A model generated the notes under the pieces. It saw nothing but the letters and a program-made list of their open reading frames with translations. It made no database searches and was not told the origin of the DNA. Below, piece after piece: positions 18,222 to 58,265 of a stretch of 64,000 bases of DNA (the first letter of the stretch is position 1; every line of letters starts with the position of its first letter). Origin of the DNA: Planctomycetota bacterium (GTDB lineage: Bacteria > Planctomycetota > UBA8108 > SXIK01); the NCBI GenBank assembly GCA_965223265.1, contig OZ244999.1, positions 7,424,001 to 7,488,000 on the forward strand, written 5' to 3'. A program made the translations under genes and the position numbers.

Positions 18222-18331
18222 GTGTCCGGTACGCTTCTGACTCGGTATCGGTATCTGCCTCTGACTCTGACTCCGTATCCGTATCCGCCTCTGCCTCTGG
18301 CTCTGACTCCGTATCTGTTTCCGTATCTGTC
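18222..18331 (+). repeat. Left direct repeat of cassette A (hexamer-periodic TCTGAC/TCCGTA/TCTGCC array)
   Basis: 18222-18257 is identical over 36 nt to 18961-18996. Both continue as degenerate TCNGNN hexamers. Confidence 0.9.
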
Positions 18332-18337
18332 TCGTCG

Positions 18338-18370
18338 TCAAAACCCGCCGCGCGAAGTGCTGCACGGCGG
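18338..18370 (-). terminator. Hairpin plus T-tract downstream of four-helix-bundle gene A
   Basis: On the minus strand CCGCCGTGC...GCGCGGCGG is followed by GTTTTGA. The same structure is conserved downstream of copy C. Confidence 0.6.
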
Positions 18371-18709: not shown

Positions 18710-18754
18710 GTGTGACTCCGGTAACGGCTGAGCGACCTGTCGCCGACGCCCGAC

Positions 18755-18878
18755 GCGGCGGCGTTTCACTGCCGCCAACCGAACGAGAGACGGGGTCAAG
18801 GGCGCGAAGCGCCGAGCGCAGCGAGGGCACCCTTGAGGCCGGCTCTCGTTCGGTTACGATCGACACAATCGCCGCCGC
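18755..18878 (-). ncRNA. Conserved structured leader element (RNA or ssDNA), copy A
   Basis: Nested stems GCGGCGGCG/CGCCGCCGC, AACCGAACGAGAG/CTCTCGTTCGGTT and TCAAGGG/CCCTTGA. The 42-nt core at 18795-18836 is identical in all three copies. Confidence 0.7.
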
Positions 18879-18960
18879 ACGCACGCCATAGCAACCCGCC
18901 GCTTCTCTGCCTGCCTCCGACTCGATCTCCGATTCCGCCTCGGAATGCGTGGGCGTGGGA

Positions 18961-19111
18961 GTGTCCGGTACGCTTCTGACTCGGTATCGGTATCTGGCTC
19001 TGACCCGTGTCTCCGTATCTGCCTCTGACTCTGACTCCGTATCCGTATCCGTATCTGCCTCTGACTCTGACTCCGTATCTGTTTCCGCCTCTGCCTCTGA
19101 ACAGAGGCGGA
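18961..19111 (+). repeat. Right direct repeat of cassette A (hexamer array ending in a hairpin)
   Basis: Matches 18222 onward. Ends with the inverted repeat TCCGCCTCTG...CAGAGGCGGA at 19084-19111. Confidence 0.9.
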
Positions 19112-25413: not shown

Positions 25414-25470
25414 CGCCAGCTGGAATTTGGCCATTCGGCGCGCCAAGGCGGTAAGCGCTGCGCGTGCGCG

Positions 25471-25530
25471 TGGGCGTGGGAGTGAGAGCGGTGTGAGAGC
25501 GGTGTGAGAGCGGTGTGAGAGTCGGCGTGG
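25471..25530 (+). repeat. GTG-hexamer simple repeats including (GTGTGAGAGCGG) x~3
   Basis: Read directly from the sequence, just downstream of the aas stop codon. Confidence 0.8.
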
Positions 25531-25710
25531 GCGATCGCGTGGCGCGTGGGGTTTCCTAAACTAGCGGGTGCACGCCGAGGCTGTGAATCTTTTGGGACGT
25601 GCCCTCGAAACTTACGGTCACGGTCCGGACGACACACGTCACCGTGTGCCGTCCGCTCTTGCGAGAGCGAGAGGGGGAGTCCGTGTGGGAGTGGGAGGGG
25701 GAGTGGGAGG

Positions 25711-26285
25711 GGGAGTCCGTGTGGGAGTCCGTGTGGGAGGGGGTGCGCGCCTCTTCAACGTGGCAGGCACACGCCGTGTGCCGTCCGGCCTTGTCGGCGT
25801 GCGCGTCGGCCGTTCCCGTGGGTGTGGGAGTCCGTGTGGGAGTCCGTGTGGGAGGGGGTGCGCGCCTCTTCAACGTGGCAGGCACACGCCGTGTGCCGTC
25901 CGGCCTTGTCGGCGTGCGCGTCGGCCGTTCCCGTGGGTGTGGGAGTCCGTGTGGGAGTCCGTGTGGGAGGGGGTGCGCGCCTCTTCAACGTGGCAGGCAC
26001 ACGCCGTGTGCCGTCCGGCCTTGTCGGCGTGCGCGTCGGCCGTTCCCGTGGGTGTGGGAGTCCGTGTGGGAGTCCGTGTGGGAGGGGGTGCGCGCCTCTT
26101 CAACGTGGCAGGCACACGCCGTGTGCCGTCCGGCCTTGTCGGCGTGCGCGTCGGCCGTTCCCGTGGGTGTGGGAGTCCGTGTGGGAGTCCGTGTGGGAGG
26201 GGGTGCGCGCCTCTTCAACGTGGCAGGCACACGCCGTGTGCCGTCCGGCCTTGTCGGCGTGCGCGTCGGCCGTTCCCGTGGGTGT
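25711..26285 (+). repeat. Five perfect tandem copies of a 115-bp unit, each with a REP-like palindrome
   Basis: CTCTTCAACG recurs at 25751, 25866, 25981, 26096 and 26211. Each unit contains GTGG-CA-GGCACAC-GCC-GTGTGCC-GTCC. Confidence 0.95.
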
Positions 26286-26345
26286 GGGAGTCCGTGTGGG
26301 AGTCCGTGTGGGAGTCCGTGTGGGAGTCCGTGTGGGAGTCCGTGT
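26286..26345 (+). repeat. (GGGAGTCCGTGT) x5 tandem repeat
   Basis: Five perfect 12-mers immediately before leader B. Confidence 0.95.
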
Positions 26346-26363
26346 GGGTTGGGGTCACCGTAC

Positions 26364-26484
26364 GGCGGCGGTCTTGTCGAGCTTACGCGGTGCTCAGAAC
26401 TGTCAAGGGTGCCCTCGCTGCGCTCGGCGCTTCGCGCCCTTGACAGTTCCTCCGCTCCGCGTTGGGGGGTGGAGTACCGCCGCC
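26364..26484 (+). ncRNA. Conserved structured leader element, copy B
   Basis: Stems GGCGGCGGT/ACCGCCGCC, ACGCGG/CCGCGT and GAACTGTCAAGGG/CCCTTGACAGTTC. The core at 26403-26444 is identical to copies A and C. Confidence 0.7.
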
Positions 26485-26526
26485 CGGATGCGGCGGGCTC
26501 TTGACTCACCGTTTCGGAGGTCTCTC

Positions 26527-26850
26527 ATGCGCTTCATCGCTCTCGATGTCAGTCTCGGTTTGATTCGCGATTTGCGGGCTCCACTGCTGCGGCTTCGGAG
26601 GCTTGATCCCGATCTCCATCGGCAGATTCGGCGGGCTGCTTCTTCGGTCGCGCTCAATCTCTCCGAGGGTGCCGAGCGCGCTGGGAAAGACCGGCTGCAC
26701 CTCTACCGCGTTGCGCGCGGCAGTGCCCGGGAGGTCGAGACTGCCCTGCAGCTCTCTGTGGCCTGGGGCGATCTCAAGTGCGAAGACGTCTCAGCGCCTC
26801 TCCAGACCCTCGATCGACTCCTAGCTCTTCTCAGCGGCCTCACGCGCTGA
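26527..26850 (+). CDS. Four-helix-bundle protein (23S rRNA IVP / bAvd-like), copy B
   Basis: 107 aa after a GGAGG RBS (26516-26520), with QIRRAASSVALNLSEG...RVARGSAREV.TAL...AWG. 55 of 107 residues identical to copy C, ungapped. Confidence 0.85.
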   Translation: MRFIALDVSLGLIRDLRAPLLRLRRLDPDLHRQIRRAASSVALNLSEGAERAGKDRLHLYRVARGSAREVETALQLSVAWGDLKCEDVSAPLQTLDRLLALLSGLTR

Positions 26851-26862
26851 GCGAGACTACTG

Positions 26863-26890
26863 AGCGCCCGCTACTTTCGTAGCGGGCGCT
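26863..26890 (+). terminator. Perfect 12-bp hairpin downstream of copy B
   Basis: AGCGCCCGCTAC-TTTC-GTAGCGGGCGCT. Confidence 0.6.
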
Positions 26891-26903
26891 GCTCACGGCG
26901 ACT

Positions 26904-27288
26904 TCTGGATCTGATTCTGACTCTGTCATCTGGTTCTGTATTTCTATCCGTCTCTGATTCTGTCCCGACAGTTGCATAAGTTTTCGCAGGAAGGGCTCAG
27001 AAACCCTTTCCCTGAGGTTCGATCGGCAGTCGAAGGACGTCGCGGCGGACCTCACGTTTGGTGAGGTTGACGGTGTGCCGTGTTCCCTCTCGCCCACGCA
27101 CACCCACACGCAAACGCACACGCAAACTCTCACTCAACCGCAATCGCGCACGGTCTTAAGGCGCGTCTCTTTTGCAACGTTGGGGTCTGACTCTGTAATC
27201 TGGTTCTGTATCTCTATCCGCCATCCGTCTCTGATTCTGTCTCTGACTCCGGTTCCGTCCCCGTCTCTCCCTCTGCCTCTCCCCCACC
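26904..27288 (+). repeat. Spacer between cassettes B and C with duplicated TCTG-hexamer block and CAC-hexamer tract
   Basis: 26916-26964 nearly matches 27186-27241. A CACGCA/CACACG tract lies at about 27095-27135. Confidence 0.8.
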
Positions 27289-27321
27289 TCAAAACCCGCC
27301 GCGCCAAAAAAAGCACGGCGG
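27289..27321 (-). terminator. Hairpin plus T-tract downstream of copy C
   Basis: Homologous to 18338-18370, with a conserved stem and a different loop. Confidence 0.6.
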
Positions 27322-27337
27322 CCCCAAGACCCAAAGC

Positions 27338-27661
27338 TCAGCGCGTCAGCTTCCAAAGCATCGCCTGCAGCTCGTCGATGTCCGCAAGCACCGAAGCTGT
27401 CTCCTGCGCATCGACGTAGCCCCAAGCCTCAGCAACACGGAGCGCCGTACGCACCTCTTCGGCACTGCCTGAAGCGACACGCCAAAGGTGCCCGCGGTCA
27501 CGACCAGAGCGCCGATTGCCCTCGCCCAAATTCAGCGCCACGGAGGACCCCGCGTCGCGCAGCTGAGCGGCAAGCTTCGAGTCGTGACGACGCACACGCG
27601 AGACAAGCGGACGCAACTGACGAACGATACCAACAGAGTGATCCAAAGCGAGAAAGCCCAT
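27338..27661 (-). CDS. Four-helix-bundle protein (23S rRNA IVP / bAvd-like), copy C
   Basis: 107 aa, about 90% identical to copy A. GGAG RBS. Confidence 0.85.
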   Translation of the reverse strand: MGFLALDHSVGIVRQLRPLVSRVRRHDSKLAAQLRDAGSSVALNLGEGNRRSGRDRGHLWRVASGSAEEVRTALRVAEAWGYVDAQETASVLADIDELQAMLWKLTR

Positions 27662-27710
27662 GAGCGACTCCAGTCAACCGGTTGAGTGAAACTCTCGCCG
27701 CACGCCCGAC

Positions 27711-27834
27711 GCGGCGGCGTTTCACCCCCGCCAACGGAAGCAGAGTCGGGGTCAAGGGCGCGAAGCGCCGAGCGCAGCGAGGGCACCCTTGAGGCCGGCT
27801 CTGCTTCGGTTACGCTCGACAATACCGCCGCCGC
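27711..27834 (-). ncRNA. Conserved structured leader element, copy C
   Basis: Same 124-nt architecture as copy A, with the core at 27751-27792. The middle stem GAAGCAGAG/CTCTGCTTC is compensatory relative to A. Confidence 0.7.
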
Positions 27835-27859
27835 AAACGCCCCTTGGCGGCACACCTCT

Positions 27860-27991
27860 TCTCTGCTTCTGTCTCTGCTTCTGTCTCTGCTTCTGTCTCT
27901 GCTTCTGTCTCTGCTTCTGTCTCTGCTTCTGTCTCTGCTTCTGTCTCTGCTTCTGTCTCTGCTTCTGTCTCTGCTTCTGTCTCTGCTTCTG
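27860..27991 (+). repeat. (TCTCTGCTTCTG) x11 perfect tandem repeat
   Basis: Eleven 12-mers counted directly. Confidence 0.95.
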
Positions 27992-28104
27992 TCTCTGTCT
28001 CCGACTCACTAGGCGTCGACGTCTGCTTGACCTCTGAATCGCGGTGAACTCCGCAGGTCAGACGGGCGCGAATGGCTGCCAGACTCGCTAGACCCAAGGA
28101 CAGG

Positions 28105-58086: not shown

Positions 58087-58265
58087 CAGAGGCGGAGGCA
58101 GAGGCAGAGACAGAGACAGAGGCGCGCGCCCACGGTCACGCTCGCGCTCGCGCACACGCTCACGCTCACGCACAGGCCAACAAGACCGGACGGCACACGG
58201 CGTGTGCCTGCTACTTTGGGAGAGGCCCACGCTCACGCTCACGCTCACGCAATCGCAATCGCGCA
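58087..58265 (-). repeat. Composite hexamer-repeat / REP element without a gene
   Basis: AGAGGC/AGAGAC and CACGCT hexamer tracts surround a REP at 58186-58214. The flanks match the 115-bp unit. Confidence 0.8.

Follow-up and report, generated by a model that had tools for sequence, protein, structure and literature searches.

The intervening sequence (IVS) of the Coxiella burnetii 23S ribosomal RNA (rRNA) gene is described as a 428-nt selfish element in helix 45 that carries an S23p open reading frame (ORF) (PMC4990558), and 23S_rRNA_IVP genes with the motif GxxRxxxSxxxNxxE are reported to occur in cas loci (PMC3936711). The four-helix-bundle family PF05635 has been described as resembling Avd (PMC10053308), a protein of diversity-generating retroelements (DGRs), whose cDNA synthesis is reported to need RNA segments flanking the template (bioRxiv 10.1101/2023.10.23.563531). 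Among small repeats and orphan RNAs, repetitive extragenic palindromes (REPs) are described as targets of insertion sequences (PMC1525189), and the likely non-coding RNAs listed by Weinberg et al. (2010, PMC2864571) include Gut-1. Here, we analyze a hairpin element, hereafter the rod, that precedes PF05635 genes in a 64,000-nt stretch of a Planctomycetota genome (contig OZ244999.1, positions 7,424,001 to 7,488,000; “the window” below is this whole stretch). The rod is a genuine, selected, rod-shaped structured element outside any catalogued family.

The element had been noticed as a 42-nt core shared by three places in the window, and this core is indeed exact at 26403-26444 (+), 18795-18836 (−), and 27751-27792 (−). 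No further match to the 42-mer was found in the window at up to three mismatches; none was found in 100 shuffles, and none is expected by chance. The copy on the plus strand, copy B, extends over 26356-26500 as covered by the covariance model (149.5 bits), its P1 helix being formed by 26364-26372 with 26476-26484. The 107–amino acid (aa) four-helix-bundle gene of P0002 follows at 26527-26850 (+; PF05635 E 3.7e-13, TIGR02436 E 7.1e-14), with GGAGG at 26516-26520 and the ATG 27 nt past the 3′ end of the model. Copies A and C are on the minus strand: the rod of copy A occupies 18739-18884 (137.7 bits; fold z −4.95) and precedes P0003 (18386-18709, −), while that of copy C occupies 27694-27840 (143.1 bits) and precedes P0001 (27338-27661, −); both genes encode 107-aa four-helix-bundle proteins that match PF05635 and TIGR02436. 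P0001 and P0002 are 51% identical, in line with the divergence of about 49% given in the original prediction.

The stems proposed there were also recovered. The middle stem is GAACGAGAG/CTCTCGTTC in copy A and GAAGCAGAG/CTCTGCTTC in copy C, and copy B has GAACTG/CAGTTC plus ACGCGG/CCGCGT. The outer GGCGGCG/CGCCGCC stem and the unpaired TGTCGA.C.TA and GTTGG.GG motifs are present as quoted. Taken together, the element is a hairpin rod of ~125 to 150 nt, in which helices P1, P2a, P2b, and P3 are followed by a small apical hairpin. Its apical module is near-invariant and consists of a GUCAAGG/CCUUGAC helix, a 5′ bulge (U-N-CCCU...UCGG), and the small GC hairpin.

To quantify pairing, we used an alignment (A2) of 28 distinct sequences: 22 from the genome carrying the window (G000; a single contig of 9.18 Mb, 60.8% GC), 4 from genome G007, and 2 from genome G021. 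The alignment omits five G000 copies whose 5′ half is replaced or that carry a deletion. In the RNAalifold prediction, the rod has 33 pairs, and compensatory changes affect 15 of these. When a 30-pair structure was assessed on the same alignment, 96.5% of cells could pair, compared to 83.6% in shuffles and 40 to 51% when partners were slid; both sides had changed in 15 of the 30 pairs. The covariation value was 0.348 versus 0.115 in shuffles, and none of 500 shuffles scored as high. In a cross-phylum set of 37 distinct sequences, 94.4% of cells pair and 23 of the 30 pairs show double changes; this alignment was fitted to the model, and its P3 columns were fixed by the search pattern. New pair types appear even in P3, where G-C is replaced by A-U within G000 and by U-A in genome G042.

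The apical hairpin is GGCGC/GCGCC in G000, CGAC/GUCG in G007, and CGCC/GGCG in G021. The slot between CCCU and CGG is variable: it is empty in G021, is filled by CGCUKCGCU in G000 and G007, and forms a GUGC-loop-GCAC mini-hairpin in genome G182. A G-U pair recurs at one position of P2b (15 G-U and 13 A-U cells in A2; 11 G-U in the cross-phylum alignment), and the bulge is always on the 5′ side of the rod. Folding of single sequences gives the rod as well, with z scores of −4.0, −4.95, and −1.94 for the three window copies compared to shuffles.

A search of Rfam 15 returned no match over the whole window at gathering score, which agrees with the original remark that the motif was not recognized as a named family. 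When E values up to 10 were allowed over 26200-26900, three chance-level matches (E 1.2 to 6.2) appeared, none of them on the element, and an Rfam search on 17 loci from other phyla found tRNAs only. No description of the motif was found in CC-licensed PMC and bioRxiv main texts, nor in a term search of bioRxiv 10.64898/2026.09.22.753630.

The covariance-model search suggested together with the motif was carried out with model R1 and yielded 40 matches in G000. The core itself matches 39 times genome-wide at up to eight mismatches, 14 times exactly and 12 times with one mismatch. The four-helix-bundle gene is present at 41 tblastn loci. A gene follows 37 of the 40 model matches, in 35 cases at a distance of 27 to 34 nt, and a match stands ahead of the gene at 37 of its 41 loci. 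The exceptions are a leader that has lost an internal stretch between two short CGT(A/T)ACCG repeats (genome 5176239), a copy deleted from the 3′ end of the core through to the last 30 nt of the gene (8664830), a truncated copy (5573705), and a gene-less remnant that has lost the CCCU bulge (3154730). The original association with four-helix-bundle genes stands in this phylum only; elsewhere, the core occurs without such genes, as detailed below, which is in part an outcome that the original prediction had named as speaking against it.

The cassettes fall into two classes. In class I, to which copies A and C belong, proteins begin with MG/SFLALDH and the P2 helix is continuous; in class II, which includes copy B, proteins begin with MRFIALDV and P2 is broken by a UGCUC/UCCGCU internal loop. 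At seven loci, convergent class I and class II cassettes form a composite repeat of 1.7 to 1.9 kb whose copies are 90 to 97% identical (~80% for one pair). The ~220-bp central spacer of the composite units is inverted in some copies (e.g., window 26850-27340 compared to genome 8303631-8304115), which suggests inversion between the terminal hairpins of the convergent genes. Four rods (genome 906376, 7190534, 8370685, and 7739250) share a ~12-nt insertion (..UCUGAGAGUGACCGC..) in the 3′ strand of P3; three keep the helix with one bulged C, and in the fourth the 5′ strand has changed too (GUCAC/GUGAC). The cassettes are concentrated origin-proximally, from ~4.6 to 9.18 Mb and from 0 to 2.6 Mb (GC skew places the origin near 7.95 Mb), and no cassette was found between 2.6 and 4.6 Mb around the terminus (~3.52 Mb). 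There was no replication-strand bias of the cassettes (21 versus 17).

To estimate conservation, we calculated pairwise identity per column in 29 intact G000 units of 39. Identity was 0.96 to 0.99 in the core, 0.85 to 0.89 in P1, and 0.55 to 0.8 elsewhere, including the coding sequence (CDS). On either side of the core, it falls to 0.6 to 0.7 within a few bases. Together with compensatory changes in excess of shuffles, this upholds the earlier proposal that both structure and sequence are under selection. For the 34 intact CDS, counting only pairs with dS > 0.05, median dN/dS was 0.14 in class I (median dS 0.57, 94 pairs) and 0.13 in class II (median dS 0.65, 163 pairs); dS between the classes was 1.7. 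With dS of ~0.6, dN/dS of 0.13 to 0.14, and core identity of 0.96 to 0.99, the copies are therefore old, the protein is under purifying selection, and the core is held far tighter than neutral sites.

The small accessory cassette of G000 contains, in this order, the rod as its fixed 5′ head, a Shine-Dalgarno site, the 107-aa four-helix-bundle gene, and a terminal hairpin. The adjacent proteins score above curated cutoffs (50 to 55 bits for PF05635, cutoff 33.8; 52 to 58 bits for TIGR02436, cutoff 24), and PF05635 has 36 matches above cutoff in G000; the gene product is thus confirmed as a PF05635/TIGR02436 four-helix-bundle protein of the Avd/23S-IVS-protein family. The nearest solved relative of the window proteins is XCC0516 (PDB 2gsc, E 3.9e-7). 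We do not claim a HEPN link of PF05635: a term search of the HEPN superfamily paper (PMC3710099) found no mention of the family. An intrinsic-terminator scan found none on the cassettes. Hairpins read directly from the sequence lie 3′ of the gene stops: a GC-rich one without a T run at 26864-26889 (+) behind copy B, also not called by the terminator scan; CCGCCGTGC...GCGCGGCGG followed by TTTT at 18340-18370 (−), a terminator-like end of cassette A that falls under the five-T threshold of the scan; and a hairpin with TTTT at 27291-27322 (−) behind copy C.

In G182, only 2 nt separate the AUG from the end of the 3′ strand of P1, and the proteins are 30 to 35% identical to P0002. In G021 and at loci L169 and L178, a Shine-Dalgarno site lies closely 3′ of the rod. 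At L054 (G005:C56), a PF05635 homologue without a rod is preceded by a CGGACT array and then a perfect hairpin with ~31-nt arms, whose 3′ arm contains a Shine-Dalgarno sequence right before the ATG; this is a different structured head on the same gene family.

The genes flanking the cassettes are unrelated housekeeping genes (an MFS-acyltransferase-AMP-binding fusion, BatA/VWA, DUF58, and DGOK). Cassettes B and C, with their arrays, form a 2.7-kb intergenic insert at 25414-28104 between Aas-like and BatA-like genes. In genome G001, from another genus of the same family, the orthologues of the genes flanking B and C converge with no more than a few tens of bases between them, compared to 2.7 kb in G000. 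Since these orthologues nearly abut, the cassettes are insertions.

A tandem array is present within 900 bp of 34 of the 38 cassettes, compared to 4.7 expected (maximum 11 in 200 trials), and array units differ from cassette to cassette. In the window, Tandem Repeats Finder (TRF) placed GTGAGAGCGGT (×3.6), a 115-bp unit (×5.3), and GTGTGGGAGTCC (×5.6) upstream of copy B (25482-26348); TCTCTGCTTCTG (×11.5) upstream of copy C (27860-27997); and arrays of TCTGAC and CCGTATC words upstream of copy A (18975-19100), whose words recur downstream in direct orientation (18236-18333). G000 contains 758 merged short-period arrays (TRF score ≥50), mostly of strand-asymmetric 6- or 12-nt words. Only 72 of the 758 are near cassettes; the arrays are therefore a general feature of G000 intergenic DNA. 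The 115-bp units (window 25703-26314, 99% identity) each hold a GGCACACG..CGTGTGCC palindrome, which is also found at window 58190-58215, at window ~25630-25660, and beside genome 5573705, and is a second small palindromic repeat family of the genome.

Five class II copies carry a foreign 5′ half, which is the end of a 2.72-kb element. This element has six copies, ≥99.6% identical (G000:C1:7186419-7189138, locus L235; 2581200, 6779080, 8597854, 8835401, and 8979589), and all share one insertion point, which lies between the P2b 5′ strand and the core, with the displaced 5′ half of the rod intact at the other end. Its product is a large serine recombinase of 702 aa that has Resolvase, Recombinase, and Zn_ribbon_recom domains and whose best NCBIfam match is XisF, under the cutoff of that model. 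Since six of six copies are inserted at the same rod position, the rod is the attachment site of this element.

Outside G000, the core pattern was found in none of 40 relatives. Model matches were obtained in 2 of 21 genomes of the order (G000 with 40, G007 with 14), in 4 of 59 genomes of the class (the two further ones being G021 with 3 and G042 with 1), and in 4 of 151 genomes of a phylum sample (G000, G021, G182 with 11, and G149 with 1); a lack of matches in an incomplete genome does not prove absence. Where downstream DNA is present, a PF05635-type gene stands right after the rod in G007, in G021, and in three G182 copies. A degenerate pattern of the apical module hit at least 115 stretches in species-representative genomes, 80 of which were taken as loci; R1 matched 77 places in them, 37 distinct. 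Record titles assign the loci to Terriglobia and other Acidobacteriota, Vicinamibacteria, Thermoanaerobaculia, Gemmatimonadaceae, Planctomycetota, Kofleriaceae, Dormibacteraeota, Actinomycetota, and a Rhodospirillaceae metagenome-assembled genome (MAG).

Among the 80 loci, a four-helix-bundle homologue is beside the motif only at the Planctomycetota-labelled L169 and L178. At L141, the start of such a gene can be read just 3′ of the rod but gave no tblastn match. Together with the record titles, the Bat-operon-type neighbors in G000 suggest that this genome is that of a planctomycete. Pfam neighbors outside the phylum include AbiEii/AbiEi, HicA, HipA_C, SLATT, Fic, DUF6883, DUF4288, HerA, and ResIII/PLD (77 of 128 ORFs scanned), and an all-against-all BLASTP of downstream ORFs brought up no family that recurs outside Planctomycetota; besides L169 with L178, it matched two trivial pairs only. 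Three of five motif-bearing genomes of other phyla have no detectable PF05635 gene (these are MAGs and may be incomplete), and none of the five PF05635 genes in the other two, both acidobacterial, has the motif (six loci checked). In one Terriglobia MAG (G202; e.g., L119), the motif is inside a ~330-bp unit resembling a MITE (a miniature transposable element with inverted repeats), with 17-bp inverted ends and at least 150 essentially identical copies.

Building on what was observed directly, namely structure, selection, copy number, fixed spacing to the gene, insertion status, and cross-phylum spread, we tentatively favor, with somewhat less than even confidence, the view that the rod is a portable cis-acting RNA module recognized by a factor not specific to the four-helix-bundle protein. 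The rod would be transcribed with the gene, fold as RNA, and act in cis. Its apical module might be recognized by a widespread RNA-binding or RNA-cutting protein, or it might have an intrinsic RNA activity; recognition would determine where the cassette transcript has its 5′ end, how stable it is, or how it is translated. Mobile DNA of several phyla would carry this portable module, the four-helix-bundle gene being its cargo in Planctomycetota-type genomes. The recurrent G-U pair in P2b and the invariably 5′ bulge point to the sense strand. The position of the rod is consistent with a leader: the 27- to 34-nt spacing, P1 abutting the AUG in G182, and a Shine-Dalgarno site after the rod in G021, L169, and L178. 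Loss of the CCCU bulge in the gene-less remnant fits selection on the element. The motif-free acidobacterial PF05635 genes (none of five with it) and the three of five genomes without PF05635 argue for independence from the protein, and the at least 150 copies in the Terriglobia repeat argue for portability.

Several observations weigh against this view. The antisense strand of copy B folds comparably (z = −4.3), so folding energy alone cannot choose the strand, and A·C mismatches, equivalent to G·U when the opposite strand is read, are not rare, at 13 cells compared to 28 G·U cells. A scan for sigma-70–like promoters found none on the cassettes, and no conserved sequence marks a transcription start more than ~20 nt upstream of P1. 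The nearest upstream ORF is co-oriented with the cassette in only 21 of 38 cases (by crude ORF calling; three of three in the window); therefore, read-through from a host gene is unsupported. Outside the phylum, a Shine-Dalgarno site, a start codon, and an ORF of ≥60 aa within 160 nt were found at 1 of 25 instances, the same as in the antisense control, and thus the element there is not the leader of anything recognizable; in at least one case, L124, it is antisense to both flanking genes. These gene-independent occurrences limit both the leader reading and any reading in which the protein is the partner. Last, the apical hairpin is invariant within the genome and shows compensatory differences between genomes, which concerted evolution would also fit.

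A possible, if doubtful, alternative makes the rod the specific RNA partner of the four-helix-bundle protein. By analogy with the homologous Avd, which works with structured RNA in DGRs, the pentamer would attach to the apical module in its own leader, giving either feedback on its synthesis or a working ribonucleoprotein. The pairing of rod and gene is tight and old (37 of 40 and 37 of 41 in G000; also in G007, G021, G182, L169, and L178), and it persists although the proteins are 30 to 52% identical to P0002. The fixed spacing of 27 to 34 nt, the position of the core as the best-conserved part of the cassette, and the parallels cited at the outset, that is, the resemblance of PF05635 to Avd and the need of DGR cDNA synthesis for flanking RNA, are consistent with a partnership. 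However, the core is present in genomes without a detectable PF05635 gene (the three MAGs above, possibly incomplete), and the motif is missing from the six loci around five PF05635 genes in the two acidobacterial genomes. Moreover, proteins of the two classes share only 51% identity, yet the 42-nt cores that go with them are identical.

The insertion of all six copies of the serine-recombinase element in a rod bears on another proposal, which we consider unlikely: that the element works as DNA or single-stranded DNA (ssDNA), as a recognition or recombination site that spreads the cassette or the bare rod in the manner of REP doublets (REPINs), integron attC sites, or the ends of hairpin-dependent insertion sequences. 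Such a role would suit the patchy multicopy distribution (40, 14, 11, and 3 copies where present), the nearly identical core in several soil phyla, the status of the cassettes as insertions relative to G001, and neighbors of toxin-antitoxin or defense type elsewhere, typical of variable regions. A cis part more conserved than the gene, as in mobile DNA, and deletion derivatives with breakpoints inside the rod fit it too. The proposal is nevertheless limited because no enzyme is associated, there is no strand bias, and the copies are old. The cassettes are accompanied by no transposase or integrase, PF00589 matches coming no closer than ~13.7 kb and Y1_Tnp having one weak match in the genome; the 21 versus 17 distribution between leading and lagging strands is unlike that of ssDNA-dependent elements. 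Conservation is found at the apex while the base varies, a pattern contrary to that of attC, and copies at dS of ~0.6 within and 1.7 between classes each keep pairing by their own compensatory changes. In the Terriglobia repeat, the transposition signal looks like the 17-bp inverted ends rather than the rod.

Rod and Avd-like protein might also make up a minimal, previously unrecognized mobile ribonucleoprotein cassette, a speculative scheme to which we give little credence. In this scheme, the protein would associate with the invariant apical module on its own transcript, borrowed host or intron enzymes would copy or insert the complex and leave short-word arrays at the junctions, and bare rods in other phyla would be non-autonomous derivatives. 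If true, it would account for the spread of IVS-type four-helix-bundle cassettes, which, to our knowledge, has never been explained.

We also considered a free-standing small RNA gene, trans-acting or self-processing (ribozyme-like), that merely travels beside the four-helix-bundle gene in this phylum; this is improbable. The rod does occur in selfish gene neighborhoods of the type in which orphan bacterial ribozymes are often found. Outside the phylum, the rod does stand alone in intergenic DNA without a consistent downstream gene, and it has conserved nucleotides in internal loops flanked by covarying helices, as such an RNA might. In our scans, however, no promoter or terminator delimits the rod; the sequence of P3 is conserved, an unusual feature in a catalytic core; known ribozyme models give no match, even with E values up to 10 allowed; and the fixed 27- to 34-nt spacing to the start codon in G000 looks like that of a leader.

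That the core has no function of its own, its identity coming from gene conversion or recent copying and its pairing being a by-product of palindromic DNA, is very improbable. In its favor, the apical hairpin is invariant in ~40 G000 copies while differing between genomes, and composite units are 90 to 97% identical over 1.7 to 1.9 kb, but the core is embedded in flanks diverged to 0.6 to 0.7 within a few bases, is conserved between genomes and phyla beyond the reach of conversion, contains independent compensatory changes in P3 (G-C to A-U and to U-A), and has decayed in the gene-less remnant.

PF05635 proteins are very common, and we know of no function or partner for them outside DGRs. A covarying element whose core is better conserved than the protein gives this family a concrete, mutable candidate partner or control element. 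The apical module is, in addition, a new structured motif; it is shared by mobile or variable DNA of at least five phylum-level groups named in record titles, and it offers a serine recombinase its landing site. Because the module is so widely shared, it would be expected to have a common recognizer or an intrinsic activity not described before.

A general cis-leader would hold a constant position ahead of a single gene family, on the sense strand, in different lineages. Such an arrangement is seen in G000, G007, G021, G182, L169, and L178, compared to 1 of 25 instances outside the phylum with a Shine-Dalgarno site and an ORF downstream. Like Gut-1 RNA (RF01706), the rod is an orphan structured motif of unknown function; RF01706 gave no match at E up to 10 over 26200-26900. 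The element is one long rod and comes from soil-type GC-rich phyla, while Gut-1 is an array of mini-hairpins from gut Clostridia. Type III toxin-antitoxin systems have tandem repeats of an antitoxin RNA, constant in sequence, followed by a terminator and an endoribonuclease toxin. Tandem arrays do lie upstream of cassettes here (34 of 38); their units vary by copy, and only the 72 arrays mentioned above, of 758, are near cassettes.

Integron attC sites are similar in being structured stretches of 60 to 140 nt at cassette boundaries that keep shape over sequence and are found in toxin-antitoxin–rich neighborhoods. Their base boxes are RYYYAAC/GTTRRRY, while the rod base is GGCGGCG/CGCCGCC, or GACGCUCCGA/UCGGAGCGUC in Acidobacteriota. 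The rod also differs in its conserved apex and variable base, and in that its copies are scattered in both orientations and form no arrays. With base motifs, conservation pattern, and arrangement all unlike those of attC, and with no integrase adjoining (the PF00589 match at ~13.7 kb is the nearest to a cassette), this assignment was rejected.

REPs, REPINs, and MITEs share with the rod their nature as multicopy intergenic hairpin repeats that show compensatory changes and are targeted by site-specific mobile elements. The rod is much longer and more complex than a REP of 20 to 40 nt and has 40 copies rather than hundreds; it is its apex that is conserved, not its arms, and it is tied to a protein gene under purifying selection. 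The single Y1_Tnp match in G000 is partial (27.3 bits, at 4.207 Mb) and far from any copy.

With Avd and the DGR template/spacer RNA of Bordetella phage BPP-1, the cassettes share a homologous pentameric four-helix-bundle protein and a structured RNA beside its gene. A DGR was rejected because no reverse transcriptase or template/variable repeat pair is near the cassettes. Four RVT_1 matches with equal scores exist in G000 (1.90, 3.42, 3.52, and 5.91 Mb), none adjoining a cassette; they look like copies of one element, which we guess to be of the group II intron type.

The 23S IVSs of Leptospira and C. burnetii resemble the cassettes in being small, selfish insertions in which an extended stem-loop goes together with a PF05635 four-helix-bundle ORF; RNase III processes IVS stems. 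The cassettes are not in rRNA: they do not occupy the helix 25/45 location, the sole 23S gene (genome 2007925-2010917) has no copy of the motif, and the longest exact match between the rod and the rRNA operon is 11 nt, a chance-level length; an rRNA IVS was accordingly rejected. P1 closes 27 to 34 nt upstream of the ATG and not around the ORF. The cassette stem, furthermore, is distinguished from that of an IVS by its sequence-conserved apical module, which is found in other phyla without any ORF.

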